The notes beneath the pieces are model-generated. The model did not search any database and had not been told where the DNA came from. It worked only from the letters and a program-made list of their open reading frames with translations. A DNA stretch of 64,000 bases from Lytechinus pictus (taxonomy: Eukaryota), in contig NC_087247.1 of NCBI RefSeq assembly GCF_037042905.1, forward strand, positions 63,187,097 through 63,251,096. Reading direction: 5' to 3'. The position numbers and the translations under genes were made by a program. This document shows, in pieces, positions 30,850 to 63,960 of the stretch. The first letter of the stretch is position 1. Each line of letters begins with the position of its first letter.

Positions 30850-32335
30850 GTAGATTCCAGTCTTAGGTGCTTCTTTAATGCACTCTTAAAACAGCCTTTA
30901 CTTGATTAGGAAGATCATTCCAAAATTAGATGCCATTAAAATAAATAGTGTTCCCTATACGACCTTCACGTTTTGGTAATACAAAATTAAAATTACTATT
31001 TCTAAAATCGTACCTATAGATATTTGATACACGGGTGAAATTATTTGCTATGTAATGATCTAACGTATCCGAATAGAATATCTTATGCACGTGGTGTAAT
31101 ACTAGTTGTTCAGATCTTTGATCTACATGGAGCAATCCAGCCATTTCAAGTTAATTGTATCCGACAAGTGCTCCTGGGCCTAAAACATTAATGAATCTTA
31201 CAATCTCATTTTGAATTATTCTTAGCTTTTTCTTATCCGTCACACCCAGACTATACCGTACCAAGCCGCATTAGCATAGTTGAATAGACATTGTATTAAA
31301 GCAAAGCATAAAATACGTCTAGACTTCATGTTCAAACAGGTTTGATATCTATACAAAAGTTTTAAGCGTGAGTGTGCCTCTTTGGCGATTGAGTCTACCA
31401 ACCCCGTCAATGATATGTCACTTATTTAATTAATTCCCAAATATTTTACTGAATATTTTCTGTCAATTACCTGATTATTATATGAAACCTTGAAATCGTG
31501 TGTATATCTTAAGTTTCGTTTCAAACAAAATAAAATGCTTTCCGTTTTCCCCAACATGTAAACTAAGCTTGTTGTCAGACATCCATTCGATGCAATATGC
31601 CAAATCTGCACTAAGTATTTTATCAATTATCTTTGGATTTGTATCTGAATATAGCAAGACACTAGCATCAGCGTATAAAATTAATTTAGATTCATTAATA
31701 CAAGTATACATATCATTGATGTAAGACATAAAAAGAATGGGGCCTAAAATGCTTCCTTGAGGGACTCCGCATTTAATAAGCAGTGAATCAGAAAGAACCA
31801 TCTCCATGGTAACAACTTGATGAAGATTAGATAAATATGATCCACACCATGTGACACATAAAGAGTCTAAACCCATCACTTCTAATTTCTTTAAAAGTAC
31901 GTTATGATTTACATTAACAAAGGCTTTATGTAAGTCTATGGGAACCATTCCAACCATGCGCCCATGTGAAATTTCATTCCTGATAAAATCTGTTAAATGT
32001 ATTAAACAAGTTTTAATGGAAAATCCGTTACGAAAGCCGGACTGGAATTTGTATATTAGCTTACTTTCTTGAAAGTTTTTCTCCAATTGAGCATAAACAG
32101 ATATTTCCAAAATTTTCGACACTACACTTAATACACTTATAGGCCTATAATTACCAACGTCAGTTTTATCTTTCTTTTTATGTAGCGGGGTAACTTTTGA
32201 AAATGTCATATCATCAGGAAAGGTAGAAGACATAAGAGGTAATTTAACTATATAAGTCAAGTCAGGTTTGTACATATTTCTTGCCCCATCTTTTAAAAAT
32301 ATTGCAGGTATCATATCAAGAACAGTACTTTTTTG
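30850..32335 (-). mobile_element. Degenerate non-LTR retrotransposon (LINE, CR1/L2/jockey-like) ORF2 reverse-transcriptase region. It is 5-prime truncated at 32335 and frameshifted downstream.
   Basis: Minus-strand ORF 31478-32314 carries the RT motifs NYRPISVLSVVSKILE, QSGFRNG.S, PIDLHKAFVNVNH (motif A), GVPQGSILGPILFMSYIND (motif B) and LYADASVL (motif C). Motif C is YADD->YADA, so the second catalytic Asp is lost. Downstream frames carry KYLGI (31426-31626) and further ORF2 tail (30926-31144). A (TGAT)n tract at 30495-30515 may mark the 3-prime end. Confidence 0.8.
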
Positions 32336-45366: not shown

Positions 45367-45907
45367 GTAACTTTGTTTATATGCTAATACAGGGCCCTGG
45401 GAATGATTTTTTAATGGGGGGGGGGGGGGCTTGGTTTAAATTTGACAAGCAAAAACATGAAAATGAAATATAAAAATAAAGTGTTTTTACTACAAAATGA
45501 AGATCATTTTGGTTACATTTTGGCTATAAATCATACCTGCCAGATTTCAGGGGAATGCTGACCATGGAGAACAACACAGGCAGCACCACCAGGGTAAATA
45601 TTTGGGACTCTTCAGCACCCCACTTCCCAGTGCCATGTAATAATAAGAAAAAAATACAGGCCAGTTATAAACAACTGGCACTAAATAATATTGCTGCAAC
45701 ATGAGTCCAGAAATTTACAAGTTTGAAGGACTGCATGGAAGTTGATGTAATATGCATAACAATATACACCCAACGTTTAGTTCAAATTGAATAATTAATT
45801 ATCCCAAGAATGAATTCTTCTTTCATACTTAGACCACAATACAAACCTGCTAGTGAAAAAATTATAAGTGTTCATTAAATTATTTGATCCTTATGACTCT
45901 TAAACAG

Positions 45908-46345
45908 GGACCAAATGAACTCACTCAAGAGCTTTTGAGACGCCTCAATTACTCCGGCAAGATCTATGTTGTACCTGCCTCCATTAAGGGTCTTTACGTC
46001 ATCCGATTCACTGTGACGTCAACAGAGACCACTGAAGATGACATTTTGGAGGATTGGCGTCTCATCCAGTCACTTGCACGTGAAATTTTCGTCTCGACAG
46101 ACATCGTGGCCAACGTCCCCACAAGGATGGCATCATGGCCTGGTGCCCTCAATCTTACCGGTGCACCAAGTGCCATCCACGTCCTTAAGAACCGGAAAGA
46201 AAACTATGGTGAAAACAACAACGAAGATAAGAGAGAAGATGAGAATGAAAGCCTTGCAAAGAAAATAGAAGAAATGAATGGGGAAGAAAGGGAGAATGTG
46301 CCACTCATCTACAAACCAGGCAAGCTTGGAGCTGTGCTTGCATGA
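45908..46345 (+). CDS. HDC: HDC 3-prime coding exon: GPNELTQELLRRLNYSGKIYVVPASIKGLYVIRFTVTSTETTEDDILEDWRLIQSLAREIF...ENVPLIYKPGKLGAVLA*
   Basis: Matches [53 protein letters not shown]. Acceptor ctcttaaacag. The open frame runs to TGA at 46343-46345. An internal potential donor G|gtgaaa at 46208/46209 is discussed in the findings. Confidence 0.85.
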   Translation, partial: GPNELTQELLRRLNYSGKIYVVPASIKGLYVIRFTVTSTETTEDDILEDWRLIQSLAREIFVSTDIVANVPTRMASWPGALNLTGAPSAIHVLKNRKENYGENNNEDKREDENESLAKKIEEMNGEERENVPLIYKPGKLGAVLA

Positions 46346-47224
46346 TAGTTGCTGTACACGTGAGATCCCGCCCGCATGGCATTTTCCTTATTTAGTTTGC
46401 CATAGAACCGTTCAATTTTTTTTTATATTCTAGCTTATAATTTATGTTCAGTCAAGTTTTACCATCTCAAAATTAATGTACCGTGGTAAAGAATAGCTAA
46501 TACTCTTACTTTCTACCCTTTAGTTTCCCCTCGCTTTATCTCTGCGTATTTCCATCTGATTATAGTCATACTTTAGCGTGCTGTATTAGCCTATAGTAAT
46601 AATGAAAAAAATATCCTAATCATGAATGTATTCCTCTCCCAAATTGCCATTTGCTTACATATGACTTGCCATTTTTGGACATTAGTCTTATTATGGTATG
46701 TTTTAAGTTAAAGTATTTGTATAGATTTCACTTATGATTTATACATAAAAACAAATGTTGGATATTTAAGGGAGTATAGCTTTTATGCTAACAATTAATT
46801 CTTAATTAAATTGCGTTTACTTTGATACTGTTATTGCTGTTGTGTTTATTATTATGACACCTTTCTTTTTATTTTAATACTTACGGCACCAAGGTACATT
46901 ACATATACTACTATAATCACAAACATTTGAATAGTAATCCAAATGTTCATTTCTAATTCAGAGTCTCTTTGTCTTTAAGAGCCCTCATCTACCACATTGT
47001 ACCCTAAACGTCCTTCGAAATATATTTGGCTTTCAACATTGTTTGAAGACACCGTGTAAAGTTGATTTAATCCTCCACCATTCAATCACTTCTAAATCAT
47101 AATTACATCAAAAATGCTTAAATAAGTATGCACTGGCAAAATACAGATCTTGGGAAACATTTTTTTAAGTTATCATAATAGGTAATTCATTATTTTGTTG
47201 ATTCTTTTTAATCAACGTATACAG

Positions 47225-47871
47225 GACGAGAAAGAAAGACATGTCTTAAAAAGCTGATGAACTACCGTAAAAAGATGGGTCGTCGTGCGATGTCAGAAGA
47301 AGCTGAGGGCTACGGCTATCCTTTCAATGCATTCTACAGCTTCGAGGATACTTCCAGCGGTCTACCCTCGCCATGCGAAGACCTTGATGACCAGGAGTTT
47401 GTTGGAGAGGATGAAGTGTTTGGGAGCAATGGTCATATCGAGAATGGGCACTCCAACGCTGACGTGCTTGAGCAGCTAGGTGGCGATGATGATGATGATG
47501 ACAACGAAACAGCCACACCTATGGACAGTCCCAAGGCAGACGATGATAACGCGAGCTTCCCGCCGACACCGAAGCACGAGGTCGCATCTGACGATGGCAT
47601 TACTCAACTCAATACCACACCAAGTACCAACATCACCAAACTGGATTTCACGGCCAATGGGCAAGCACAACCAATCATCATGGGCACAGAGAAACCTGCT
47701 GATGTTGGGGTCGCCAGCAAGGGTAGGTTTGGTGCTCTCAGCCAGACTAAAGAAAGCACCTACAATGGAGTGGTGAATATTTGCCACTATCGCTCCACCA
47801 AAGGCTCCTCAAACGGCTCCACCGAAAGAAACGAGGAGGAGCAGAATACCGAGTTGTGCGACCAAGAATAA
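47225..47871 (+). CDS. Candidate additional HDC 3-prime-terminal coding exon encoding an acidic/Ser-Thr-rich tail (…MSEEAEGYGYPFNAFYSFEDTSSGLPSPCEDLDDQEFVGEDE…GGDDDDDDNETATPMDSPKADDDNASFPPTPKHE…ELCDQE*). Alternatively it is an unrelated ORF.
   Basis: This is a 215-codon open frame (47212-47871) in AT-rich DNA with exon-like codon composition, on the same strand as HDC. The acceptor cgtatacag (47223-24) leaves 2 bases that complete a Gly codon with the phase-1 donor at 46208/09. AATAAA follows 122 nt after the stop. Confidence 0.45.
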
Positions 47872-47992
47872 TTCCTTGCCGATATAAATTCATATAGTAC
47901 TAGAATCAAGTGTCATGTGTGTTCAATAACTATCGTAATTACTGTTTGAACAAGAAATTAAAATGTATATTAACTTTTCTGTCTATATCATG

Positions 47993-47998
47993 AATAAA
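47993..47998 (+). promoter_or_regulatory. AATAAA polyadenylation signal downstream of the 47225-47871 ORF
   Basis: catgaataaatgtagg. No canonical AATAAA is seen in the ~900 bp following the 46345 stop. Confidence 0.4.
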
Positions 47999-50684
47999 TG
48001 TAGGCGTTCTGATTGTAAATGCAAGGGATCGTTGCTAAGAGGGCATTTATTTTTATTCCCTCTGTGCCCATCACGATCATTCACACTTCCAGATTATGAA
48101 ATCAATTTTTGAATCAAATAGAAAACCGTCTTTTAGAAAGATATTTACGATTCATATCATTGTAGGCCTTCCAGACGTCCTTTATCATAGCGAATAATTT
48201 TCTGCTAGTAATGTGGATGTGTTTTGTCCCTGTAGCATGCTCTATAATTGGTTCATGACATAGGTCCTCTGGTGTATATACAGCAATGATAAAATGTTTG
48301 TATTATTTCGTTACTTATGACAAAACAAAATAAAAGGAACGACACCATTCTAAATCAAGTACAACGTTATCCCACATTAGTATTAGTCATGATAATGGGA
48401 ATTTTTATTTAGGATAAACGAACAATACTCTTCCTTCCATAAACCAATGAACCTCTTCGTTCATAAAGTCAAGTACATATACATTACAATCATTGATAGA
48501 TTTGTTCATTTAAAACCATTGAACTGCTGTATATATAGTTTTGTAACCCATAATATTGAAGCAAGTCCAATCGGATATTATAATAGTGAATACCCTGAGG
48601 GGGAAGTAAGTATGGATCCATCGCATTGTGCAACGCTAAAATGGATATGTGAGATAAAGCCCATTTATTTATAAGTCTACTGTTATTCGCGTTTGTATTT
48701 CAACAAAGTTTGTCCAAAAAAAAATCGACATCTTGTCATTATCAAGAAATAGTATAACATGAATATCGCATTGAGTTTGTATAAATAATATTTGATTGCT
48801 TTAGATGAGAGATCACTAAATCATGACAGTAATTGAAAATGTAATTGACAAGTTGATATTTGTATCGATCGAGGACTTATGAGTTCGTTTTGAATCTTCA
48901 TTGTAACCAATAATGAAATTAAGTGTAAAAAAAATATTTTCCCCTCCAATATAAGAGTAATTTATATAGTTTTTACTTAGTATTTATTTGTCTTACACCC
49001 TACTCAAGCTGTACATGTACGAGGAAGATGTAAAGATTTGAATTTAATTTAATAATGTTTGAATTGTGAATTAAAGCATTGTGTGTAGATCATATTCAAT
49101 TAAAGGAGGTTGTTCTTTAGCCGAAATTTTAGTGTCTAAATGTAGATTATATTTCGTCTCTAAGAAACGTATGGAACATATAATAAAAAACATATTTACT
49201 TCAGACGTTGATTACTCATTGAATTTATTTATTTCTAGACAAAAATGTCAATGGTAAACATCAAAACAGGAGGATGCGCCATGCTTTCTCATGACATCAT
49301 TTAGTCTATCGTCACCCATGCCGTGCATGTAACTGCTTTCAAGCTAAATTTTAAATTGTATTACTTTCTTTTTTCACATCGTATTTTAATATTCCCAGTG
49401 TTATGAGTAATTGATTATTCTCTATATTTCATTTATCGTATTGTGACCTTCATAGTTGGTATATCAATCAATGATAAACAACACATACAAAGCAGAATTA
49501 AGGCCAATCATATATGTATGATTCTTTATTCACATATCGTATTTAAAAATCTGTTTTGCTAGTTAATATATATGACAAAAATAAAATGTAAGCATGATGG
49601 AATACTTGAGATAAGAAGCCGCAATTCAACGCGTTTACGGCTGACGTCATTTTGATGATAATATACAATGTAAAATTACATGTGCACTTAATTTTTGCAT
49701 GTATGGTTCAAGAATGTTTCTGATTTACATTTACAAACGAAAGATCCAAACAGATTGATGATACATAGGCCTACATATAGCTTGCTCGCTACTACTTAAT
49801 AGTTGGGCAACATAAGCGTGTATTAAAGGTATAATGACTTTTAAAAAAATGGTACAGTCCGTTATAAGCACAGTATATACCAAATGAAAAGTGGTTAATG
49901 ATATTTCAGTTAAGGATGTTCTGTCATGATTTCATTTAAATCTCTCTATATATACACTTTAATTCTATAGGTATTTAGTAAATGCAATTAAAATATAATT
50001 CAAATCCCAAAAGAATCAGTCTCAGATGGATTTTATTATGTATTAATTAATGAGTCATCAATTAGTTTTGATAATTAAACATGATGAATTGTGCAATTGG
50101 AAACAGCCACAATTACAAGGTAGTAACGCAACCATTTCTTGTTACACTCATGTACGGAAACTGCTTGCTTGTAGGTGGAGAAAAATGTTAAGTGCAATAA
50201 TAACTGTATTGACAATGAAAAAGAATATTTCATGTAAAATAGATGCTATGAGTAAGGAAGTTCCATTATTCTATTACCCCCCCCCCCATCCCTCAATTAA
50301 GTAGGAGTCATGTCAAGCCTACCGCTGTTAGAAAATTTCCCCTTTAAAATAGAAAAGTTACTGCAGCAGAGTCTCAAGAATACCTGTAATCATACAGTGT
50401 TTAAAAACAAATACAGAAAATTAGTAAATGGAGTATGAAACCTTACAAATTTCATGTAATAAAACTTTCTTTTTAAATAGACTAGTTATGTTAAATTGGG
50501 AAACTTTCCTGTGATAACAATTAACAGAATGATACTGTATTTTTTCTGTAAAATCTTTTTTTCTAACAGTGCACACCACTAAGCAGCACATTACACAAAA
50601 TACTTAGATTACAATCATCAGCATTTCCAAAAGGATATTATGTTAACTACATGAATACAGAAGTGATTAGGCGATACTTCCGTG

Positions 50685-50917
50685 TTAATCCAATTGGATT
50701 GTCTTCTGATTCGAATCAGGAGAATACACTACATTATCAAAACCAGACGCTGGTGTCGGGATCGTGTCTTTTTTCCCTGACGACGTTGCCGATGTTGATG
50801 AGGTCCCAAGTTTTGGGACACTGCGCATGCCCATCATGTAGCCGACAACGAGGAGGATGACAGTGACAACTAGCACACAAGAGATGACGATACCAGCTAT
50901 CGCTCCACCAGAAAGAC
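50685..50917 (-). CDS. Terminal coding exon of a minus-strand gene: transmembrane helix plus cytoplasmic tail (GLSGGAIAGIVISCVLVVTVILLVVGYMMGMRSVPKLGTSSTSATSSGKKDTIPTPASGFDNVVYSPDSNQKTIQLD*)
   Basis: Acceptor tctccaag (minus strand). A ~24-residue hydrophobic segment is followed by a basic/Ser-rich tail and a TAA stop at 50685-50687. It is phase-consistent with the two exons upstream. Confidence 0.6.
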
Positions 50918-51386
50918 CTTGGAGACATATACCAATCGATAAGTGTATTTAATCATCACAGTCTGTAAGACTTATTCATGAATTTCAGAATATCAAGTTA
51001 AAACTTAGATGTCAAACACCCTGCTATATGATCATATTACACCAGCTATTATCATTTAGGTATCTTTAGTCATGAAAGCGTAACCGGAATCTTATCATTC
51101 ATGCTGCTGTCCATCATTAGGAAACTTGTTTTTAACTGGAGAGGGTGACAGCCTTGTCATGTGAGATTGATTGACCTGAGTAATTGGACAATAAAAACAA
51201 CTTTTTAGGAGGACTATTGTCCATAATTTGACAACAATATTTTATTTACCTTGATTTTTTTTATTTTCAAATGATTTTTGTTTACCTTTTCAATTCAGGA
51301 GGTGGCAATGAATGTAATATTCTTTAAATGGCATGGATTTATAGTATTTACTTTATAAAACTAATTGAAGTTGTCGGGATAATTAC

Positions 51387-51422
51387 CTTGGCCCACAGGC
51401 TCTTGACTTGTGCTGTTGTCAT
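51387..51422 (-). CDS. 36-bp stalk micro-exon (YDNSTSQEPVGQ) of the same minus-strand gene
   Basis: Minus strand ttttacag|ATGACAACAGCACAAGTCAAGAGCCTGTGGGCCAAG|gtaatt. The phases (2+33+1) link exactly to the CTLD exon (which ends +1) and the TM exon (which starts +2). Confidence 0.45.
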
Positions 51423-51849
51423 CTGTAAAAGATCAATGATAACATGAGGAAAAGTGTAAATATTGCACAAAAAGAATTGATATTCAGTATAATTTATAAT
51501 GTATCAATAATTTGGACCACAAACAAGTGCACACAACATCGTTATTTACTAATTTGTAAGGTATTTCTAATATATTCAGTGATTTTCGATTTTCGATGTG
51601 CACATACCAATATATGTGTATGCATGAATGACATATCAGTGTATGCATGAATGACATAGGTACGCAATCAACCACTTAATTCAATTCAACCATGATAATA
51701 CCTAATAATTTTGACAAAAATGAATCTTATCAACTTTGCATTAGTATTCCATAAGCTAAGCGAGAAAAACGAATGAATGATGTGAAAATTTTTCAAATAA
51801 TAATTATAAATTTTATCGCACTTTTAAAACCCTTGATAAGAAAACATAC

Positions 51850-52032
51850 ATTTAGGGAATTTGCAAATGAAGGATGATCCAGTGTTGCAGACTTCATCCT
51901 TCCATGTTCCATATTCATTGGTATAAATTTCCACACAATTCTCCTGTGTTCCTCTCCAATCATTAGTAGGCTCTCCGTTATCCCATTGAACATAATCAAC
52001 AGGGCTACCGTCATTCCACTGTGTAAATCCAC
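51850..52032 (-). CDS. C-type lectin domain (C-terminal half) exon: GGFTQWNDGSPVDYVQWDNGEPTNDWRGTQENCVEIYTNEYGTWKDEVCNTGSSFICKFPK
   Basis: Carries the CTLD hallmarks W.DG....Y..W..GEP.N.....E.CV.......G.W.DE.C.....FIC. Acceptor gcacag (minus strand), donor gtatgt. It overlaps ORF 51793-52059 (-) in a different frame. The N-terminal half of the CTLD and the signal-peptide exons were not found; they presumably lie at higher coordinates, beyond the PLE/satellite block. Confidence 0.7.
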
Positions 52033-52295
52033 CTGTGCATCACCAAGAAATAAGATCACAAACGTAATTACATTTATATCAAATTAGTTTTTCATTACAA
52101 TTGCTTTCATACGTAAGGGAAGAGAAACAACCTAATCCAATAACCCAAGGTTTTTTGTTTTTTTTAATTAATGCTATGGTGCACAATTAGAGTAGAGTTT
52201 GTGAAAATTTGTTTAACAAGTTTAAGGGGATATGTATGAAATAACTGGCTATCATTATACATAAATCGTCTTTCTTTAAATGCACTATGTGTGAA

Positions 52296-52791
52296 TCAGG
52301 TATCTTTACTGGGAAGAAAAAGAATTGTGTTATAAAAATATTTAAAATTTGATATTATAAGTTTTACGATGGAAAAACAACTTTGATTGAAACAGAGGAC
52401 AGTTTCACGTCCGATCCGGGACGCTTCTTCAGCTCTTCTGAATTGGCGGGAAATCGTCGTTGCCGATTGGCGCCGAAGCACCGTCGATGTTATTGTCTTG
52501 GAGACGTCGAGGAATTGTTCGGATTACAGGACTGTAAATCCGAGAGAGGTTATGTCGTAATCCTCCTCCTTTGTTGAGAGATGGGTTCTCTGCGTTGACG
52601 TAGACCGCCTCACGGACCCCCCTCTCAAACCACCTAGGTTCTTTGTCTAGGATGAGCACGTCTTTATCTTTGAAGTTGTGTTTAGACGTGTTCAGGTGGG
52701 AGTATACGGCAGAATTGTATCCCGATGCGCCTGGTCTGCGATGTTGATACAAACGCTTCACTGTTAAAAATTGCCGTAATTTTACGGACAA
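52296..52791 (-). mobile_element. Penelope-like element (PLE) fragment: C-terminal GIY-YIG endonuclease domain only
   Basis: Minus-strand ORF 52429-52791 reads ...RLYQHRRPGASGYNSAVYSHLNTSKHNFKDKDVLILDKEPRWFERGVREAVYVNAENPSLNKGGGLRHNLS.IY. This matches the conserved R..EH....SAV..H.....H.....ILD.E..WF.R.V+EAIYI....LN+..G of the PLE GIY-YIG EN domain. The RT portion is absent; the fragment abuts the satellite at 52792. Confidence 0.6.
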
Positions 52792-54010
52792 AATTTAACA
52801 GAAATCGTCCGTAAACGATAAAATACGGAATAAAATTGTAAATTTACGGATTTCTACAGAAAATCCGTAAAAATTACATAATAATCAGGTAAATGATCAA
52901 ATTTACAGACGTTTTCTGTAATTGTACAGAAGATCATTATATTTACGATACATCTTGTAAATTTACTGTAAAGTAGATGTAAGTTTACGGATAAGATTTA
53001 ACAGATTAATTTGTATTACGTGTAAAGTGCAATTTCTACGGAAAAATTTGTAAAATTTACTGAAAAATCAGGTTAATGATACATTTTCTGACGTTGTCCG
53101 TAATTGTAGTGAAGATCATTCTTGAAAGGAGACGTTTAGTGGTTTACGGTACAAATCTTTGTAAATTTACTAGAAAGTAGCTGTAAGTTTACGGACAAGA
53201 TTGAACAGATTAATTTGTAATACGTGTAAAGTGCAATTTCTACGGAAAATTTGTAAAAATTACATAAAAATCAGGTAAATGATCAATTTTACAAACGTTT
53301 TGATCCGTATAATTGTACAGAAGATCATTATTGAAAGGAAACGTTTACAGTACATCTTGTAAATTTACTGTAAAGTAGATGTAAGTTTACGGACAACGTC
53401 AGAAAATTTATCATAAACCTGATTTTTCTGTAAATTTTACAAATTTCCGTAGAAATTCCACTTTACACATATTACAAATAAATCTGTTTATCTTATCCGT
53501 AAACTTGAAAGGAGATATTTAGTGGTTTACTGTACAAATCTTTGTAAATTTACTAGAAAGTAGCTGTAAATTTACGGACAAGATTTAACAGATAAAGTGC
53601 AATTTCTACGGAAACTTTGTAGAATTTACAGAAAAATCAGGTTAATGATAAATTTACTGACGTTGTCCGTAATTGTAGTGAAGATCATTATTGAAAGGAG
53701 ACGTTTACGATACATCTTGTAAATTTACTGTAAAGTAGATGTAAGTTTATGGACAAGATTTAACAGATTAATTTGTAATATGTGTAAAGTGCAATTTCTT
53801 CGGAAAATTTGTAAAATTTACAGAAAAATCAGGTTATAATGGTAAATTTACTGACGTAAGGAGACGTTTACGATACATCTTTGTAAATTTACTGTAAAGT
53901 AGATGTAAGTTTACAGACACGATTTAACAGATTAATTCGTAATATGTGCAAAGTGCGCAATTTCTACGGAAACTTTGTAAAATTTACAGAAAAATCAAGT
54001 TAATGATAAG
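52792..54010. repeat. Satellite array, ~6-7 units of ~185-195 bp (…ctgtaaagtagatgtaagtttacggacaagatttaacagattaatttgtaatacgtgtaaagtgcaatttctacggaaaatttgtaaaatttacagaaaaatcaggttaatgat…), including one internally inverted unit segment (53395-53510)
   Basis: Unit starts at ~52968, 53155, 53360, 53555, 53725 and 53890. The segment 53395-53510 is the reverse complement of the unit core. Confidence 0.85.
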
Positions 54011-54529
54011 TTTTCTTTTTCGAGCATGCGCACTTGAGAAGTTTGTGAAAAGCCCGCGAAGCAAAGAGAATTTTCCTTGATGTCTTGGATGTGTCAAGTG
54101 ATCTTCTTGATCAGAAATTCGTAAGTATTTTGCTTTGAATTCGTAAAAGAAATTTCTGCTGTGCTTCTCTGGAATATATTGATACGTTTTATACAGTTAT
54201 ATGAAATTAATAGTGTTGGTTTTCATGATTACGAACAAGGTTTTGGCATTGACAAGTCCAGACGATGCAATGTATCGTCGCGTACGCGCTGCTACAGTCC
54301 CATTGGTGCATTTGAGTGTTGGATATTTTGACACTGTGGTTGAACGAATTGAATCGAAGGTGCGAAGCCGTGGGCCAAGCTTGTTTTATGAGCTTCACAA
54401 GGATATTTATATTATGATGCCATTTATATATTCATTTGTATCTTCATTTGTAAATGTCAAGATGAAAATATAAACCTCAAAATATTAAATTTGTGCAATT
54501 AAACTTATTTAAAGGGGTGGATTAGATTA

Positions 54530-56290
54530 GATCTAAATCAAATCAATGACAATGTCAATGGGTGATTTCAAGTACGGTGTTGAAATCTGGTGTTGGTGTT
54601 GTGACAACACCGTACTTGAAATCAGGCTGGTGTTGGGATTGACCTCGGAAAATACGACGTATTTCCGGCAGTTCGTGTTGAATGTCGTCTGCTGAACCCA
54701 GCACTGCGGCTGGTGTTGACGATCTACGTGCAATTTCCCCATTCACCAACACCAACCCCCAGGGATTGGGAAAATCATGGTTTCAAGTTCGGTGTTGGTG
54801 TTGGCAATCTCAAGCTCGTGAACAGGCGGCAAACACGATGAAACATCCCCGTAAAATTAGCTTTTACAGTTAAGATGAGCTAGTACTAGTAGTAGAACAA
54901 ATCATTTGAGCTGTAGGGGCCTGGCTATATATTTTGATAAAGAATAATGTTCACTCTTTCGAATTCTTGAATTAATTAAAACATTGGTAGAATGGGGGGG
55001 TTGGGTGTCCGGACACGTAATAGAAATGAAGCCTTGTTTTTATCTCAGGAATAAACCAAAAATATAGGTTGAATAGTTTTTTTTCACCATCAATATTTGT
55101 TCTTTATAATATTTTCTTATATTCTGTGCTAAAAAGAATTAAAGACATTGCTTGTAAACTTTTCAAAATTGAGAGTAAAAGTCATGTGTCCGGACACCCA
55201 ACCCGTCCGGACACACAACCACTGGGTATACATGTATTCTGTACGATGAGAATTTAATGCATTTCTTTCCGATTTCATTTTCGTCGTCGAGACTTCTCGC
55301 GTGAAGTTGAGATGATTTAGCAGCGCAGCGCAGAGGCGTGATGTCATGTGCTATCGATAACGCAATTGGTATCATTCCTCTGAACCCAGTCCCAGCTCGG
55401 TGTTGGAGCTCGGTTCAGCGGCCTTTTTACGCTCTCAACACCAACACCGAACTTGAAATCACCCAATGTCAACTACAGTTAGTTAGATCTAGTATACCTC
55501 GAGCGAAGTTCGTGCAGGCTCCACTTCACTTCACTACCGCTACACTACACTCCACCTACCCAAACTTCGGGACGGTGATCTCGATCGGATATTCCGAGTG
55601 ACAAAGGTGGGGTGGCCGATGGAAATGTTATTTATTGTAAAAATCATAACAAAAAATATAAAGAGAAAGAAAAATGGCTTAATTTCTTACTCTTCACCCG
55701 TATTTCACTCCGTGTCCATCCTCTGGTTATCCTCTAAATTGTTGATTTTGAGCCAGTATCTATTTCCTCACACGTCACTATTCATGGCCGATTTAAAAAC
55801 ATCGCATGCGATCGGTCGCAGGTCAAACAGCATAAATATTTATATTATTATTGGATGGTTCAGAAAATACCAAAAATATTCTACGAGTATAGGAAAATGT
55901 TTTTTTTCCTCATTTTATTTTTTTCTATATTTTTTACAATAAATAACATTTCCATCCCACCTTTGTCACTAGCGGTAGTGAAGTGGAGTGGAGCCTGCAC
56001 GAACTTCGCTCGAGGTAGATCTAGTAATGACTTAGTGCTGGCTAGCGACCGACAGGTTTCCATTCTCAGCCATTCACTGATAATTCAGTTAAGACAGTGT
56101 GTTCCATGTGTGTATGTGTGATGCGAAGCTACCTCAGCTCAAGCGATGTAGACGACCTTGTTGGAGCGTACAGTGTAGCGGTAGTGAAGTGGAGTGGAGC
56201 CTGCACGAACATCGCTTTAGGTAATGCGAAGCGTGCTGTACATGTGTCCTCTGGACGTGTGGGCATGGGTTTAGTGACAGTGTGCATGTG
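54530..56290. repeat. Composite of inverted-repeat/foldback modules. Paired arms gtgtccggacac… at 55000-55025 vs 55181-55215. ~100-bp inverted arms at 55490-55640 vs 55915-56010 enclose 55640-55915, with a further direct copy of the arm at 56160-56215. Also (ggtgttg)n-like caccaacacc motifs at 54580-54800 and 55390-55450.
   Basis: The reverse-complement arm pairs were read directly (ctcgagcgaagttcgtgcaggctccacttcacttcactaccgct…gtgacaaaggtggg vs cccacctttgtcactagcggtagtgaagtggagtggagcctgcacgaacttcgctcgag). ORFs 55338-55601, 55598-55942, 55855-56121 and 55881-56063 are mirror artefacts of these arms. Confidence 0.65.
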
Positions 56291-57456
56291 ATTGTGAAGG
56301 GTTGAAGCCCGGGTTGAAGTTTCTTACAGCTCTGTGGGTTTATCTATAATTAAATGATTCTCTTTTCAAGCTTAAATTTTTATAATGATGATTGCTACAT
56401 TCCAATTATTTGATTAAATTGTTTGTTTTAGAACAGGTCTTTTATTTTGTCCTCAGTCTATTTCTCCCATTACATATCAATTAAAGAGAGTCTTCACTTG
56501 TGTTTCATTAAATTATTATACAATGTCCACTGTAATGAAAATGGAAACATGCCGGTCAAATGAAAGTGCAATATAAGTGGAAACATGCTGGTCTATTGAC
56601 TATATGTTGACCATATAGTAGAAAGCAAAATTTGTTCTCAGCTGTAATTATTCTTCTATGGGAACTTGCTTCTCATAGATCAAATAAAATTTCCGAAGAC
56701 CCCATATAATTTTGTACTATTTGGTGCATTTAAAGAGGAGAAAGAAATGCTTTTTTTTTTCAATTTGCCTAAATTGCATTTAAAAATATACCTTTCTTTT
56801 GCTTTCGGCACAGGCCAATTTTTAGAGGCTGAAATATTAAAGAGTTGATTACTTAAATTTCGTTCTAAAATCTTTTTCATATCACTTGCAAATAGAGAAA
56901 ATATAGCGCCCCCCCAAAAAAAAACTTTAATTTTTAAAGGCATCTCGCACAAATGATTACAATGTTTTTGTTTTATTTATCATTCACTATGAGATCTGTA
57001 TAAAGTGATAAACCAATGAATTATTTTTATATGTATATGTTTCCAATTATTTGCCTACCGGTATTTATTAAAAAATAATGTTTGTGTTGTTATTTGACAA
57101 TTGTTTCACAGAATTACGTCGTCGGTTGACATCTACCTATACCCATGGATTATCTCCATCACCTTCACAACCTTGAATTGCTAAGAGAGGTATGATTGAT
57201 AAATTTGGTTTACATTGTTTTAATTTGTTTAAAAGTATTATTGAAATGATTTGATGAGATAACAAAAATGAAAACTTGAAATAACATTTTGAATGTAATT
57301 TTTGTTAATCTTGGGAAGACAATTAAGATTGCAGTTATTATGTTGGTAGATGTGTAATCAAATCTACATGCACATGTTCACTGTTTGGAACGTTTATAAA
57401 GATCACAAAATAAAAGAATTAAAAATAATATTCAACTCTTCTGCATACATGTACAG

Positions 57457-57673
57457 CTACCTTTGCCAAGACCACGTCGTGGGCTACGGGATGCTAGAAA
57501 TCCATCGGAATCGTACGAGGATGGGCCATTTCAAGATCGGTATCGACTGTCAAAAGAAACCGTCATTTACATCATCAACATGCTGGAAGCCGAATTGAAG
57601 AGGGACACACAGAGGAATGATCCACTTCCCGTTTATTTGCAGGTGTTGACGGCTCTCCGTTTTCATGCAGTGG
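57457..57673 (+). CDS. PIF/Harbinger transposase-derived gene (HARBI1-like), exon 1: LPLPRPRRGLRDARNPSESYEDGPFQDRYRLSKETVIYIINMLEAELKRDTQRNDPLPVYLQVLTALRFHAV(G)
   Basis: Matches the Harbinger/HARBI1 N-terminal pattern R.R.FRDR.NPL....D.E...RYRF....I..L...L...L...T.R...L.....Q+L.ALRFYATG. Acceptor gtacag, donor G|gtgagt. The frame is open upstream only to 57400, without an ATG; the ORF track's M at 57463 is a TTG, so the start codon is not resolved. Confidence 0.7.
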
Positions 57674-58193
57674 GTGAGTAATTGAATTAAATGATTATTG
57701 AATGTTTCTGGGCACTGTTAAATCTATTTGACTGAGGTTGTTTCTATTAATTTTAGGACTCCAGACAAAGTTGATGATGATGACAATATCTAGAAATCAG
57801 AGAGGGATCACATAAGTAAGAGTATCATTTAAGCAAACAGTCAAGTACCTATGAATTGCATGCTTAAAAATTCCAAAACTACCACAGCAGGAGTGAAGCT
57901 CTGCTGTTTCTGCTGTTAGAACTGTTATGTCAGGTTAGAGTTATAAATTCGTCATTAACCCTAAATTGGCAGATCACCCCCACCCCCCCCCCCCGAAACT
58001 TGGCTGTGTTGCGATGAAAAGCTATGAAATTTGGCACATAGATAACAACTCGAGATGAACATACACACAAAAAACTAGAGCTGCAATCGTATCAGAACAA
58101 TGTGCATGCATTGACGCCTGTGATTTTATGGAGGGCAAGAAACAGAAGGAGATAAAGAGAAAACTCCTGAGGATATACATTTTCAAAATATTA

Positions 58194-58790
58194 AGAGGGC
58201 GCTATTTTTATAGGCAATGGTCACTGATGCGTAAAAAAAACATTTTGCATATGAGGGATGATGCCATTAGCAAACCCTAAAAAAGTGATACCAAGATAAA
58301 TGGAAACAAGGAAGTGATGGCCATTTTACTGTTTTCCAACTTTTTAATAGAGAGCGCTATTTCTTAAAGGTAATGGTCACTGATGTGCGTAAAAAAACAT
58401 GGATTATGAGGGATGATGCCATAAGCATACCCTGAAAATATGAGACCGAAATAAATGAAAACTAGGAACTTATCGTCATGGCCATTATAATATTTCTTTA
58501 TTTTTGAAGATAATGGTCATTGATGTGTGAAATGAAAAAAAAAACAATTGAATTTGGACTATCATAAGTCAACCCTGAAAATATGAAACTGAAATAAATG
58601 AAAACAAGTAAGTGATGGCCATTTTACTATTTTTCCACTTTGCAATAGAGGGCGCTATTTCTAAAGGTAATGGTCACTGATGCGTAAAAACAGATGAATA
58701 AGGAAGCATGTTCCCAAATCAGACCAAAATGAATAAAAACAAGGAAGTTACGGCCATTTTATGATTTTCCTACTTTACATTTCAATAAAT
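58194..58790 (+). repeat. Tandem array, ~4 x ~150 bp (agagggcgctatttt..aggtaatggtcactgatg.gtaaaaa...gagggatgatgccat.agca.accctgaaaa..tga.accaa.ataaatgaaaacaaggaagtgatggccattttact), inside the HARBI1-like gene intron
   Basis: Units start at ~58194, 58350, 58497 and 58648. Confidence 0.85.
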
Positions 58791-59439
58791 ATTAATTTTT
58801 TTAATGTAGACTATTTCGGATTTGAATTAAGGGCATGAAGACGGCATTTTCAAGGGCAAGTCATATTTTCATATGAAGAGCAACTCTTAAACAATCTACA
58901 GCAATTTGTTAGAAGTGTGTAGCATGCAGGATAAGAGAGTAAGGATGGGATTAGGAATAGTATGCAAATGGACTAGAAATTTACAAAATGGCGCCTGGAT
59001 GGTCATGCATTGCCCCTGTCCGTCCGCCCCCCCCCCCCCACTTGGTTTCCGCGCAATAAGTAAAAAAATATGTAATGGATAAAAAAAATTTGGTGTGTAG
59101 GTATAGGACACCAAAATACAGGCTCAGTTCGAATTCGGAGTCCGCAGGTCAAAGGTCACAGCTCATTAGATATGCGAGTTGGTTTCCACATGATTATCAT
59201 AAGTTCCAAATGAATATTTAGAAATGTTTTTTTATTTGAATTATAATCATGTGAATGATCACACATAGACATCTACTATGTATGGGAAATACCATGTATG
59301 TTGCGCGCCATGTTATATAGTGGTACACTTTGGGGGTACTGACCAATTTTTTTGAACTTTTATCAATAGATCTGCAAAAACATCAAGGTAAAAAGTCAAA
59401 AGCACGGGGCAGAAAATAAACATTATTCAATAGCTGTTT

Positions 59440-59520
59440 TTGAAGTCAGTACTGCTGCTATATCGAATCGCGTATGATGGAGACACTGCAAGAGGCCTTC
59501 CACTTGTTAAAATGAATTGC
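59440..59520 (+). repeat. Third (tail-only) copy of the 28350/32336 element family: …cagtactgctgctatatcgaatcgcgtatgatggagacactgcaagaggccttccacttgttaaaatg
   Basis: Shares the tail consensus agcactgctgctatatt.aatcg…atgcaggcgagactgc.agaggcg.tccacttgttgaaaat with the other two copies. Confidence 0.6.
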
Positions 59521-59677
59521 AGAAAATTGTCTGATATTTGTAAAAGATGAATATTCTTATGAAATATGTGCTTAATTTTTTTTATCATCAGAAGTATCAT
59601 CTGTATGTGTAATGAAATGTTTTAAAATTACCTCGAAACAATGACCTATCAACCATATGGTTTGTTTGATTTTACAG

Positions 59678-59964
59678 GATCATTTCAAAAGATGCATGGT
59701 GATGAGGCAGCAATATCACAGTCATCAATGTGTCGAATCATCAAAGATGTGTCAGAAGCTATAGCAAGAAGGAAAAGGCAATACATGAAGTTTCCTTCGA
59801 CAAGAGAAGAAGTTGAAGCAACTCAGCGACAGTTCTTCCAGTACTGCAGATTTCCAGGAGTGATAGGTGCAATTGATGGGACACATGTCTACATCAGGAG
59901 CCCTGGTGGGGATCAGGCAATATACTTCCTCAACAGGAAGAATAGATACTCGATCAATGTTCAG
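59678..59964 (+). CDS. HARBI1-like exon 2: (G)SFQKMHGDEAAISQSSMCRIIKDVSEAIARRKRQYMKFPSTREEVEATQRQFFQYCRFPGVIGAIDGTHVYIRSPGGDQAIYFLNRKNRYSINVQ
   Basis: Matches Harbinger DDE-domain block 1: GSFQ...GD..GISQ.S.SR.I..V..AL.......I.FP........K..F......P.V.GAIDGTHI.I..P......Y.NRK...S.NVQ. The first catalytic D is in AIDGTH. Acceptor ttttacag, donor gttaga. 287 bp (2+285). Confidence 0.8.
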
Positions 59965-60546
59965 GTTAGATTAATTATACCCTTTCTTAGGCCCTTTTCA
60001 CAATTAGTGCTGAGACTGCTTGCAACCTTTGTGATTGTGTGCGACATATATTGTGATCAAATGATTGCAATTGCTAATACAAGCAAATGTGAAAGCCACT
60101 TAAATTACTATAACTAGAACAATGTACTATTTTGTATAAAGTTTGGCAAAAAAAAAGAATGTGACATTAATTTTCTTTCCTAGGATTTCCTATCACTTCA
60201 GTTTCATTTATAGTAATTATTCGATTCGTATTTGATTGGGCAATTTTTAAAATGAGTAGTTAATTCTGTAGCATATATATATTTTTTTTGTGCAAGTACT
60301 GAGCAATTGAAGCAGTGGAAGGGTGGGGTGATTGTTGGATAAATCAACCTAACATGGAAAGCACACCAATAATTTTTATGTGCATGCATGTTAAAATTGC
60401 ATTCCAAATATGTGATAAACTTGCAAAACTCAATTGTTGTGTGCTCCCATTGGATGTCCCAAAGAAAATTGAAAATTAAGTGCCCAGAACAATATAGAGA
60501 CAGTTATGAATGTAAGATTTGATATTCCTCTTTTGTCTTCTGCTAG

Positions 60547-60621
60547 GTTGTTTGTGATCAGGCTGGGAAAATAACAAGCATCGTTGCCAGATGGCCTGGC
60601 AGCACACCTAACTCCGCAACC
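60547..60621 (+). CDS. HARBI1-like exon 3: VVCDQAGKITSIVARWPGSTPNSAT
   Basis: Matches L/VVCD..G.......WPGS.HD..V. The conserved second catalytic Asp (WPGSxxD) is Asn here (aac). Acceptor tctgctag, donor gtaagt. No convincing downstream exons were found before the LINE fragment at 60640. Confidence 0.7.
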
Positions 60622-60639
60622 GTAAGTCACTTTTCAACC

Positions 60640-61450
60640 AAACTTGGATGGTAGATGTACTTAGGCGACCTGCATATTATGCTGCAGTCGGAGGTCACAT
60701 GGTAAGGTCAAAGTGTTCAAAGTTTTTGTAGAAATGTACCAAACCCGACGGTGCTCTCACTCCATGATGTGTCACTGCATCGTAGCAATCCAGTCGGATT
60801 TGAAATGGTCTACACATGTTGAATATATGGTCAAGAGCGCAAATAGTTGTTTATATGTTCTTCGCACTTTGAAATATCATAGTCTGTAATTTCAGGACCT
60901 TATAGTTGTATATACTAGTTTCGTGAGACCAGTTGTTGAATATGCTGTACCTGTATGGTCAGGAGCACTAACAAAACAACAAGTACAAGTCATCGAACGT
61001 ATTCAGAAACGTGCCCTTAGAATCATTTTTGGAGCAGCATATTCTTCATATGAGCATGCTTTACTCCAGTCAGAACTGATGTCTCTTGAAGAAAGATGGA
61101 TCAAACTCTTTGTCTTGCGTTTGCGAAGTCTATGCAAATCCCCACGTCTAAACTGTATCACCTTCTACCTCAAAATAGGACTTGTCAATATCAGACTAGA
61201 AGCTTGGCCGGAACAGTAGAGATGCGATGTCGAACTTCACGATATAGAAATAGCCCCTTGCCCTCGTTGATTCGGCACCTTAAAGAGAAATTCCAGTAGT
61301 TGCAGTAAACACTGATTTCATGAGAAAGTCTGTAAAACAAGGCTTAATTGTCAGTATATCATCGAGGATCTAGATCTGGTACAGTTACATAAACTGAACT
61401 TTGTGAAATCTTGAAATCTACGCTGAAAAATGTTCAGGCTGAAGATCCCC
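60640..61450 (+). mobile_element. CR1/L2-like LINE, 3-prime ORF2 tail fragment (…KWSTHVEYMVKSANSCLYVLRTLKYH…FVRPVVEYAVPVWSGALTKQQVQVIERIQKRALRIIFG…)
   Basis: The R-P-.-LEY...VW.......I..+E+VQ+RA.R.I motif characteristic of the CR1-clade ORF2 C-terminus is present. The copy is frameshifted and fragmentary. Confidence 0.7.
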
Positions 61451-63169
61451 AACACAGATAAGCACACGTGGGACAGTGTATAATTATTGCTTCGAATATC
61501 GGGCCCGACGCTCTACCCGAATCCTGTGCTTATTTGCTGATTTCTCAGCAATTACACAATTTCTTCCAGAATCCTTTGGCACATATGTTTTATTTATACA
61601 AACAGACACTTTGGTGGTCATTTCATTGGATTCTGTACGAACTCATTTTGATATCGTTACCAAAACTAGCATTTACCTTTAACTCTAAAAGAATTGATTA
61701 CAAGGAGTAGTTTTTTTTTTATATATCTTCCCCTATCGTTACATGTATAACAATATCAAACTACGAATGGCTGAGAATTAAAGAACTCATCATTCATTGG
61801 ACTCTTAAAATGTGATATCATTAAGAGATTGTTTTTTATAAAATGCAGATTACATACTAATTCTAATGTTGAGTTCTCTTTATGTTGGCGAACTCAAGTT
61901 TCATTTCATTTCATTTTACTTTGTTAATCAAAATATTTTTCTTTCATATGAGCAATTATTCACTGATATCTAGTCGTAAACTTAATATTTGAATTGAAGT
62001 CATAAAAATTGCCAAAATATGTATTATTGCAGCATATTAGATTATCGTTTTTTCCCAAAGTAATGTAATTCAGAATTTAATATGTAAATGTGTTTATTAA
62101 TTTCTCTTTGTATATATGTTTAATCGTTTTATGATTTCTGTATACAGTGAATACTGAATCATTTATTTTAATTATTATTTATTTATTTTTATTTGTTTAT
62201 TTTTTATTCATTTTATATATATTGTTTATTTCTTAATTTTATCTTATTTTTTATTCATAAAATTTACTTATAAAAGGGGGCCTTCACCCTACAAGCACTG
62301 CTTTTTAGTTGGTCTCCTTCCCTTTAGATTTCATGGTATTATTGTATTATAAAAAAATGATTTAAATGTTATATTTTGTTATAATGTATATTGAACTATC
62401 ATTGTAAATGTAAAAAGATTGAAAGAGAAAATAAATGAATTGAATTGAATTGAATTGCTTCTTCGCCCTTTTCTCTCTGTTTCCCTTCCACCATCAATTT
62501 CTTCTCTTCTCTCTCTCTCTCTCTGCCTCTCTTCTCTCTTCCACTATTTCTATTCCTTTCTGCTTTCCAATTCATTTCCTCTATCCACTCATATTTACAT
62601 GTATTTTGAATATTTTTCAAATTTTTTTATTGATCAGTGAGAATCAATTTAAATTTATTTATGATATACTTTGTTACATATGTCTACATTGAAATTTGTT
62701 CGTAGTACTATAAGTTTTTTTACCTTGTTATTGATGATTTTGTTTGAAATGTAAATTTTCGCAATTCGGCTTTTGCCGCAAAGAAAGGATTTTTAATAAA
62801 CCATTTTGAATTGAATTGAATTTACAGGTCAACATTAAAGTTTATGTGCAAGGCTCTTATGACAAGTGTTATTCCATCCCAGTCATTTCACAATGAAGTT
62901 TCAATACAATTATGTTGTGTGCCCTCGCAAATCACGATATTTCTGGTTATTTTCATGAGTGGGCGAGACACAATCACTGTTGCCATGTTTTATTCTAGAA
63001 ATAGTAAGCTTAGTATGAAAAAAATTATTGAAAAAAGCTGGCCCGATTTGTCCAGGTCAGAAAAGGGCAACACAATTTTTGTTCAGGCCTTAAGTGAATG
63101 CATTCATACAATCTACCATGTGTTTGGGAGTACATGTTTAAATAGCAAATCAGCGTTCCTATTGTAAGG

Positions 63170-63960
63170 TATCTACTGATTAAAAAATATCTGTAAAAAA
63201 TTTAAGAATTCTGTAAACTTGTTTTTTTACGGAAATGTGTAAATTTACATGGGAATTTTGTAAAAGTACGGTAATTTTACGGAAAAGGAATCCGTAAAAT
63301 TACGGATTAAAAAAAAAATTCCGGCAGCAAAATTTCCGGACAAATTTTTTTTTTCCGTTAATTATTTATACGGAATCATGTTAATTCACGTAAATTTTCT
63401 GTAAAATTTCCGTAAATAATATCCATATTTTACATGGGAATTTGTAAAAGTACGGTAATTTTACGGAAAAGGAATCCGTAAAATTACGGACAAAAAAAAA
63501 AAATTCCGGCAGCAAAATTTCCGGACAAATTTTTTTTTTCCGTTAATTATTTATACGGAATCATGTTAATTCACGTAAATTTTCTGTAAAATTTCCGTAC
63601 ATAAAATCCGTATTTTACATGGGAATTTTGTAAAAGTACGGTAATTTTACGGAAAAGGAATCCGTAAAATTACGGACAAAAAAAAAAAATTCCGGCAGCA
63701 AAATTTCCGGACAAATTTTTTTTTTCCGTTAATTATTTATACGGAATCATGTTAATTTATGTAAATTTTCTGTAAAGTTTCCGTAAATAAAGTCCGTATT
63801 TTCAAGAATTGTAATTTACGGAATCTCGTATATTTTACAGAACTTTTCCATAAATTACCACTTTCTGTAAATTTACGGAAAAAAAAAAAAAGTCCGGAAA
63901 TTCTGCTGCCGGACTTTTTCCGTTAAAAAACGGAAATTTTTCTAACAGTGTTGGAGAGGG
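63170..63960. repeat. Satellite array, ~4 units of ~180 bp (…tacatgggaattttgtaaaagtacggtaattttacggaaaaggaatccgtaaaattacggacaaaaaaaaaaaattccggcagcaaaatttccggacaaattttttttttccgttaattatttatacggaatcatgttaattcacgtaaattttctgtaaaatttccgtaaat…)
   Basis: Unit anchors acatgggaatttt at ~63256, 63433 and 63616. It shares tacgga/ccgtaa and ttctgtaaaatttac motifs, in inverted orientation, with the 52792-54010 satellite. Confidence 0.85.

Follow-up and report, generated by a model that had tools for sequence, protein, structure and literature searches.

Harbinger families have already been described in S. purpuratus, and Harbinger-Snek and its S. purpuratus relatives are solo-ORF or deletion-derivative variants that kept their terminal inverted repeats (TIRs) and were mobilised as DNA transposons (PMC8437027). 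Vertebrate HARBI1, a domesticated Harbinger transposase, is single copy, syntenic and full length and has been reported only from jawed vertebrates (PMC9392472), and the domesticated PIF transposase genes of insects are single-copy orthologues with an intact ORF and microsynteny (PMC9710019).

The locus studied here lies in a 64-kb stretch of Lytechinus pictus DNA, the whole of which is called the window. It is already annotated in RefSeq and is an ordinary kind of element. With a probability of roughly 85%, we read it as a dead, 3'-truncated copy of a transposase gene from an echinoid PIF/Harbinger family with natural introns, joined to a LINE fragment. Like PIF/Harbinger transposons, the family has a DDE_Tnp_4 transposase, sister-species copies with 27-nt TIRs starting with GGCC, a Myb/SANT partner and a 3-bp A/T-rich target-site duplication (TSD), and also deletion derivatives and MITEs. 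The TIRs of mPing/Pong start with GGCC as well. Unlike such transposons, the window copy comprises the N-terminal 203 codons, is fused to a LINE and has no TIRs, no partner, and neither the second catalytic Asp nor the Glu. It shares with vertebrate HARBI1 an origin from a Harbinger transposase and, in RefSeq, the name, but it is a truncated, decaying sequence with many copies, whose intact relatives are transposons bounded by TIRs. As with the domesticated insect genes, its exon-intron structure is conserved across species and the copy itself is without TIRs; in contrast to them, its ORF is not intact and it is not single copy. It also resembles the Harbinger-Snek-type variants, which are likewise multi-copy with coding capacity partly lost, and a TIR-bounded example with exons 1 and 2 is known within the family (L003), whereas the window copy has no TIR within 10 kb upstream.

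Exon-intron structure and catalytic residues

All features of the gene lie on the forward strand. The coding region begins with a 45-nt exon (exon 0, 57145 to 57189) that starts with ATG, reads MDYLHHLHNLELLRE and ends at a donor GT at 57190; its homologue in S. purpuratus, by sequence comparison, is the MAYLHHLRRIQRVRE exon of P0150. Intron 0 (57190 to 57456; 267 bp, GT-AG) is followed by exon 1 (57457 to 57673; 217 nt), which encodes the N-terminal region of the Harbinger transposase, intron 1 (57674 to 59677) and exon 2 (59678 to 59964; 287 nt), which holds the first catalytic Asp (GAIDGTH) and in which the DDE_Tnp_4 match begins. Intron 2 (59965 to 60546; GT-AG) leads to a remnant of exon 3 (60547 to 60606) that retains 60 of the 153 ancestral nucleotides and ends with ARWPGST, the limit of its homology with P0147, P0148 and the S. 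purpuratus exon. The original prediction had listed three exons (57457 to 57673, 59678 to 59964 and 60547 to 60621) separated by introns of 2.0 kb and 0.58 kb. Their AG/GT borders are present, the phase is consistent and the introns measure 2004 and 582 bp. The exons are real, but the list was incomplete, exon 0 having been overlooked. With exon 0 included, the spliced product is 218 aa long and matches P0102 (XP_063953615.1) at every residue, a protein that RefSeq names "putative nuclease HARBI1" of Lytechinus pictus.

Exons 1 and 2 have the same lengths as their S. purpuratus counterparts (217 and 287 nt), with nucleotide identities of 77% and 82%, respectively. The S. purpuratus intron at the position of intron 1 measures 258 bp versus 2004 bp in the window, where repeats add length, one of them an ∼150-bp tandem array at 58194 to 58779. 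The peptide obtained by reading through intron 2 recurs as the same sequence on other scaffolds, in the paralogs P0097 and P0099.

A 193-aa translation matched the Pfam profile DDE_Tnp_4 (PF13359) with an E value of 1.5e-9, covering only profile positions 1 to 56 of 158, and the window copy is 74 to 84% identical to full-length urchin proteins. The first catalytic Asp (AIDGTH) is intact in the translation, as had been predicted, and it is the only residue of the catalytic D-D-E that the copy has: the Asp of WPGSTHD and the Glu of VIERTFG are absent across the whole 64-kb window. The C-terminal half was correctly recorded as missing, since tblastn with four full-length relatives as queries found nothing of it in the 64 kb, and the coding region is truncated past codon 203 against an ancestral length of ∼353 to 371 codons. 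Because the second Asp and the Glu are missing, the product would be unable to cut DNA.

The break in exon 3 and the adjoining LINE

The gene is broken within exon 3 directly past the codon for Thr203 (WPGST), one codon ahead of the second catalytic Asp. At the nucleotide level, homology with the S. purpuratus exon extends only as far as ∼60606, and the L. pictus paralogs P0147 and P0148 are 98% identical to the window copy as far as WPGST and then continue with HDSRIFSECTLKEQ (WPGST-HDSRIF); the window copy continues with PNSAT. It had been proposed that the second catalytic Asp was mutated to Asn, but this "Asn" sits where the homology ends and is an artefact of the breakpoint. A point mutation was rejected as an explanation, as it needs four changes in six nucleotides exactly at the end of all homology.

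The junction sequence (60607 to 60654) reads PNSATVSHFSTKLGW and closes the 218-aa reading frame with a stop codon at 60652 to 60654, 15 codons into foreign sequence. The GT at 60622 was ruled out as an ancestral donor, since exon 3 measures 153 nt in intact relatives; this GT is fortuitous, and the RefSeq model passes through it to the stop. In L. pictus, 14 or more distinct paralogous proteins from six or more scaffolds have this junction tail in common, and at the amino acid level the L. pictus paralogs are 98 to 100% identical.

Downstream of the break lies a 5'-truncated LINE fragment (60635 to 62821) in the same orientation as the gene (+), with the C-terminal tail of a reverse transcriptase followed by a 3' UTR that ends with AATAAACCATTTTGAATTGAATTGA. 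A putative CR1-like LINE tail had been reported 20 bp past exon 3, and the sequence downstream does encode the C-terminal end of a reverse transcriptase of non-LTR type. Its start falls between 60607 and 60724, secure from 60724 and plausible from ∼60635. The fragment is 70 to 75% identical to a set of proteins, the longer of which contain RVT_1; its reverse transcriptase tail has one stop and one frameshift, and an insertion of ∼395 bp occupies 61284 to 61678. It is colinear with a LINE in another contig (L002) and shares its 3' end, with AATAAACCATTTTGAATTGAATTGA closing the homology both in the window (62821) and in L002 (∼4333), which defines the LINE 3' end. This end is complete and includes AATAAA and a (GAATT)n tail; the sequence beyond it, from 62822 onward, is unrelated to Harbinger. 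A Pfam search of the longest other ORFs returned nothing but one RVT_1 fragment.

Intact relatives and the question of domestication

As originally reported, no TIRs bracket the window copy. The motif GGCCCG was not found anywhere in 47000 to 61500, no TIR was found within 10 kb upstream of the copy, and the S. purpuratus TIR, searched as a 24-mer with up to three mismatches, gave no match in the whole window. A 15-mer of this TIR occurs in the window only at one chance-level site (43953) and in a MITE at 23.5 kb (23281 to 23541; 261 bp), which has the same TIR as the S. purpuratus elements and an ATT TSD. The inverted repeats that do bracket the copy are only short A/T-rich or satellite motifs; satellites at 52.8 to 54.0 kb and 63.2 to 63.9 kb were tried as element termini and rejected, being only 57 to 68% alike. 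The reported lack of a Myb-like partner ORF also held, with no tblastx or tblastn match in the window and no Pfam match of any kind in the six frames of 54000 to 57460.

Intact relatives were found in S. purpuratus, where three elements of 15 to 19 kb, mutually 95 to 98% identical in DNA, each carry the perfect 27-nt TIR GGCCCGAATTCACAACAGTGGTACAAA (L001, 5853 to 21076; L004, 9705 to 28791; and L005, 4620 to 20807, the last within a UCH gene intron). Each has the 217- and 287-nt exons with intron positions equal to those of the window gene, and each includes a Myb/SANT partner gene (Myb_DNA-bind_5, E=1.1e-11). A 5-kb, TIR-bounded deletion derivative with exons 1 and 2 only was found on another echinoid contig (L003, 7398 to 12375). 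The flanks of these relatives read AAT/AAT (L004), ATT/ATT (window MITE), GTT/ATT (L005), ATT/TAT (L001) and TAT/ATA (L003).

Each of the three urchins examined has dispersed, closely similar copies. In L. variegatus, identical full-length proteins (353/338 aa) are encoded at three loci, with two more loci besides (at least five). The truncated form accounts for at least 15 gene models in L. pictus, which are spread over six or more scaffolds; five of these models share one scaffold and have nearly consecutive accession numbers. Six distinct L. pictus paralogs keep the 218-aa frame unbroken, and about half of the copies are disrupted further, being N-truncated, frameshifted or ending in an intron, which fits neutral decay. 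The models P0101, P0108, P0109 and P0006 are without 5' parts and keep the junction tail. Another model, P0106, has an odd tail (HNGHKFL) that the window does not encode. Several RefSeq isoforms per locus suggest that the loci are transcribed, and with six intact frames the truncated protein may conceivably have a function.

The introns had been taken as the sign of a host-domesticated gene of HARBI1 type. This did not survive the comparison with S. purpuratus, in which the same introns are found inside TIR-bounded, Myb-partnered, multi-copy elements and therefore belong to the transposon; the argument is built on these S. purpuratus elements, and introns in the transposase ORF are no evidence for domestication in this Harbinger family. 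Sinzelle et al. in 2008 reportedly documented introns in Harbinger3_DR. The fallback reading of the original prediction, a decaying transposon copy, is supported. Many near-identical copies with TIRs and TSDs had been named as the mark of an ordinary transposon family, and this is in essence what was seen: the copies are there in L. pictus, and the TIRs, the TSD and the Myb partner were found in the sister-species elements and the window MITE.

One rival reading is that the host domesticated a gene of HARBI1 type, or that a young gene family arose, and that the truncated protein, with its N-terminal DNA-binding region kept, has been retained by the host, for example in a regulatory role or to inhibit Harbinger transposition in a dominant-negative manner. 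This would account for the exon-intron structure that L. pictus and S. purpuratus have in common, the window copy without TIRs, the paralogs with the full 218-aa frame and the several isoforms per locus. The dN/dS of 0.11 between the window gene and the S. purpuratus copy, itself a transposon copy, shows past constraint, but an active transposase would give the same value. We consider this explanation very unlikely: TIR-bounded, Myb-partnered transposon copies have the same structure, the copies lie on many scaffolds in three species and about half of those in L. pictus are disrupted, and within 10-kb flanks there is no synteny with the S. purpuratus loci and nothing in common outside the exons. 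Judged by the standards used for insects (PMC9710019), the coding region is not intact, no single-copy orthologue in synteny was found, the family being multi-copy in three species, and transposon hallmarks are present, the closest full-length relatives residing in TIR-bounded, Myb-carrying elements; HARBI1 itself has been recorded only in jawed vertebrates (PMC9392472). Still more improbable is a complete gene whose exon 4 and missing part of exon 3 lie past the window end, behind inserted repeats. The window affords a downstream view of just 3.4 kb past the break, and intron 1 demonstrates that the locus tolerates kilobase-scale insertions, but the break falls within an exon and not at an intron border, the sequence past the LINE 3' end is not Harbinger, and the RefSeq models at no fewer than 14 paralogous loci share the read-through stop codon despite full-length urchin homologues being available as evidence.

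The name "putative nuclease HARBI1" is probably an automatic similarity label, and in urchins it would denote ordinary Harbinger copies or fragments and not a HARBI1 orthologue. The importance of this goes little past annotation hygiene; a TIR-less chimeric fragment at 15 or more copies is of modest interest.

Spread of the chimera

Because the junction is common to the paralogs, the transposase gene would have been broken a single time, in exon 3, and joined there to the 5'-truncated LINE in the same orientation. The chimeric segment, introns included, would then have been copied many times and recently; the size and the ends of the L. pictus repeat unit, and the retention of introns across copies, are deduced from protein models only. 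Segmental or tandem duplication is a possible route of this spread. In L1 biology, both insertion-associated deletions and LINE chimeric retrocopies occur. The window resembles these in having a 5'-truncated LINE in sense orientation next to unrelated transcribed sequence, with the downstream part of the target missing, but it differs in that the copy keeps its introns and no TSD was found. Terminal GGCCCGAATTCACAA repeats with 3-bp TSDs on L. pictus copies would favour a non-autonomous Harbinger element.

The segment with Harbinger at its 5' side and LINE at its 3' side could instead be a retro-mobilised unit, in which the LINE machinery copied transcripts that terminated in the LINE 3' tail; such copies would share their 3' end and show nested truncation from the 5' side. 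Consistent with this, the two parts share their orientation, the LINE 3' end is intact and followed by sequence unrelated to Harbinger, the copies are spread across six or more scaffolds, and P0101, P0108, P0109 and P0006 have the junction tail without the 5' parts. We nevertheless find it doubtful. Introns are kept, which is unusual in RNA-mediated copies (the read-through of intron 2 in P0097 and P0099), the 5' truncations are known from gene models only, and the five models with nearly consecutive accessions on one scaffold point to local tandem duplication. Around the chimera (57145 to 62821), no repeat of at least 11 nt that would qualify as a TSD links the 3' flank beyond 62821 with any sequence ahead of 57145. 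A bolder and improbable proposal is that the chimera is a new non-autonomous mobile unit that spreads via the LINE 3' tail with its spliceosomal introns kept, or else that the host has kept the 218-aa non-catalytic, DNA-binding product because it represses Harbinger transposition. Each of these, if true, would account for the 15 or more near-identical copies, many with intact frames.

Structure of the truncated transposase gene

The three exons originally predicted for a HARBI1-like gene (57457-57673, 59678-59964 and 60547-60621, + strand) are real, with AG/GT borders at each and an unbroken frame, and the introns, put at 2.0 kb and 0.58 kb, measured 2004 and 582 bp. The 193-aa three-exon translation matched the Pfam profile DDE_Tnp_4 (E=1.5e-9) over profile positions 1-56 of 158 only. 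An extra 5' coding exon (57145-57189; MDYLHHLHNLELLRE), directly followed by a 267-bp GT-AG intron, had been overlooked. With this exon included and the GT at 60622 read through, the spliced product is 218 aa long with a stop at 60652-60654 and agrees at every residue with the L. pictus 'putative nuclease HARBI1' P0102 (XP_063953615.1); the gene model is therefore already in RefSeq. Reduced to the N-terminal region and the first Asp, the product should be capable of acting neither as a nuclease nor as a transposase. Much of the expansion of intron 1, which is about 260 bp long in S. purpuratus and 2 kb in the window, is due to repeats: a ∼150-bp tandem repeat (58194-58779; units 67-75% identical) together with repeats containing poly-C/poly-G near 57970 and 59030.

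The reported loss of the C-terminal half was confirmed by tblastn with four full-length urchin relatives, which recovered only these three exons and no match to residues past about 205 anywhere in the 64 kb. What had been read as a catalytic Asp-to-Asn change is instead a breakpoint. All relatives compared carry the motif WPGSTHDSRIF, and the nucleotide match to S. purpuratus exon 3 is strong up to about 60606, where homology ends, with none beyond. The longer L. pictus paralogs P0147 and P0148 (294 aa), matching the window at 144 of 147 residues up to WPGST, continue with HDSRIFSECTLKEQ...LLGDSGYP...VIERAFG. We rejected a point mutation, which would take four changes in six nucleotides precisely where similarity ends. 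Exon 3 is 153 nt long in intact relatives, so the GT at 60622 does not represent an ancestral donor site.

The LINE claimed to adjoin the truncated exon was borne out by a + strand match to the C-terminal tail of a non-LTR retrotransposon ORF, starting plausibly at about 60635 and securely at 60724 at the latest, with 70-75% identity to proteins whose longer members have RVT_1. It is colinear with a LINE of a separate echinoid contig, L002, across the end of the ORF and the 3' UTR, and the two share their 3' end, AATAAACCATTTTGAATTGAATTGA, at window position 62821; the window copy is split by a ∼395-bp insertion at 61284-61678. No Harbinger sequence was found in the window 3' of 62821, so that a LINE simply inserted into the gene, with the remainder close behind, does not explain the arrangement. 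A second AATAAATGAATTGAATTGAATTGAATTG motif at 62430-62458, within the LINE 3' UTR, apparently marks the 3' terminus of a further short, nested LINE-tail copy. A fragment of another LINE family lies at 31255-32314 (minus strand; 278-aa ORF with RVT_1, E=1e-25).

TIR-bounded relatives and the domestication reading

We compared three S. purpuratus loci (L001, L004, L005) coding for close relatives of the window protein (83% aa identity). The three share 95-98% identity across 15-19 kb, with sharp ends formed by a perfect 27-nt inverted repeat, GGCCCGAATTCACAACAGTGGTACAAA, and unlike flanking DNA, one copy lying within a UCH gene intron. Between these terminal inverted repeats (TIRs) sits a transposase gene whose 217- and 287-nt exons and intron positions are identical to those of the window, and all three copies carry a second, convergently oriented gene whose first exon encodes a Myb_DNA-bind_5 domain (E=1.1e-11). 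In one of the three, exon 1 is interrupted by an in-frame stop. Each also holds, between transposase and Myb gene, a second segment resembling a Harbinger transposase, inverted and roughly 30% identical (L001 13446-17086; L004 21477-21850), and the Myb gene region includes a ∼340-bp tandem array. On another echinoid contig, a 5-kb element with the same TIRs (L003 7398-12375) keeps exons 1-2 only and is therefore a classic deletion derivative.

No TIR was found around the window copy, the GGCCCG motif being wholly absent from 47000-61500, and no Myb-like coding sequence was found in the window. A 261-bp MITE of the same family lies at 23281-23541, flanked by a 3-bp ATT duplication and with GGCCCGAATTCACAA as the core of its TIR; its right end matches the S. 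purpuratus and L003 TIR (GGCCCGAATTCACAAAGGTAGTTTTGAAAAC) and its left TIR has an internal deletion. Flank pairs across family elements (AAT/AAT, ATT/ATT, GTT/ATT, ATT/TAT, TAT/ATA) are suggestive, though not proof, of a 3-bp A/T-rich target-site duplication (TSD). A stretch of ∼100 bp at 8523-8620 shows 72-80% translated identity, in several frames and on both strands, to L004 19386-19483, just 3' of the transposase stop within the S. purpuratus element, and may represent either another remnant of this family or a repeat that both sequences have in common.

The original prediction was largely correct as observation, and its reading as a host-domesticated HARBI1-type gene is unsupported, since the same introns occur within TIR-bounded, Myb-carrying elements. 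Judged from these sequences, the family is an ordinary transposon with introns as part of it. Four criteria mark a domesticated PIF/Harbinger gene in the literature (PMC9710019). Three of them, an intact ORF, single-copy syntenic orthology and lack of transposon hallmarks, fail here, and the fourth, constraint, does not discriminate: dN/dS against the S. purpuratus copy is 0.11 (dS 0.89), a legacy of selection while the transposase still worked and not a sign of domestication. HARBI1 proper has been reported solely from jawed vertebrates (PMC9392472), and S. purpuratus Harbinger families with solo-ORF and deletion variants were already described (PMC8437027). The window locus is a transposon relic of an ordinary kind, and it is annotated already.

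Copies of the chimera and their spread

In L. variegatus, an identical 353/338-aa protein is encoded at three loci, and two more loci reach 90% identity or above. In L. pictus, no fewer than 15 gene models show the truncated form, and they lie on scaffolds of 82.4, 57.5, 49.7, 42.4, 31.3 and 17.2 Mb; the junction tail ...WPGSTPN... is common to 14 distinct protein sequences, and the window intron-2 read-through peptide recurs in two models on other scaffolds. Roughly one model in two is aberrant, for example through N-terminal truncation or a frameshift. The break in exon 3 and the fusion to the LINE would have been one single event, after which the chimera (57145-62821), introns included, would have been copied many times, recently given the 98-100% aa identity, and the copies would now be decaying.

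How the TIR-less chimera reached at least 15 copies is only hinted at. LINE-driven mobilisation is hinted at by nested 5' shortening of models whose 3' junction stays constant, by an intact, sense-oriented LINE tail and by unrelated sequence after that tail; against it stand the introns kept in the chimera and the missing TSD, none having been found bracketing 57145-62821. These same two features hint at DNA-level duplication, as do five models that neighbour one another on a single L. pictus scaffold.

Other features around the locus

Possible host-gene exons, some 10 kb 5' of the Harbinger fragment, are the longest non-repeat ORFs in the window (45884-46345, 153 aa; 47257-47871, 204 aa; + strand); neither had a Pfam match. 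A MITE-like structure at 55495-56223, unrelated to the Harbinger TIR, has three arms (55495-55546, 55970-56017 and 56172-56223) forming inverted repeats of 48-52 nt with 92-98% complementarity (TACCTCGAGCGAAGTTCGTGCAGGCTCC...). 'TACGGA'-rich tandem arrays lie either side of the locus, at 52850-54016 (period about 164-204 bp) and 63244-63926 (186 bp; 96% internal identity); the two arrays share just 57-68% similarity, and internal inverted units occur in each.
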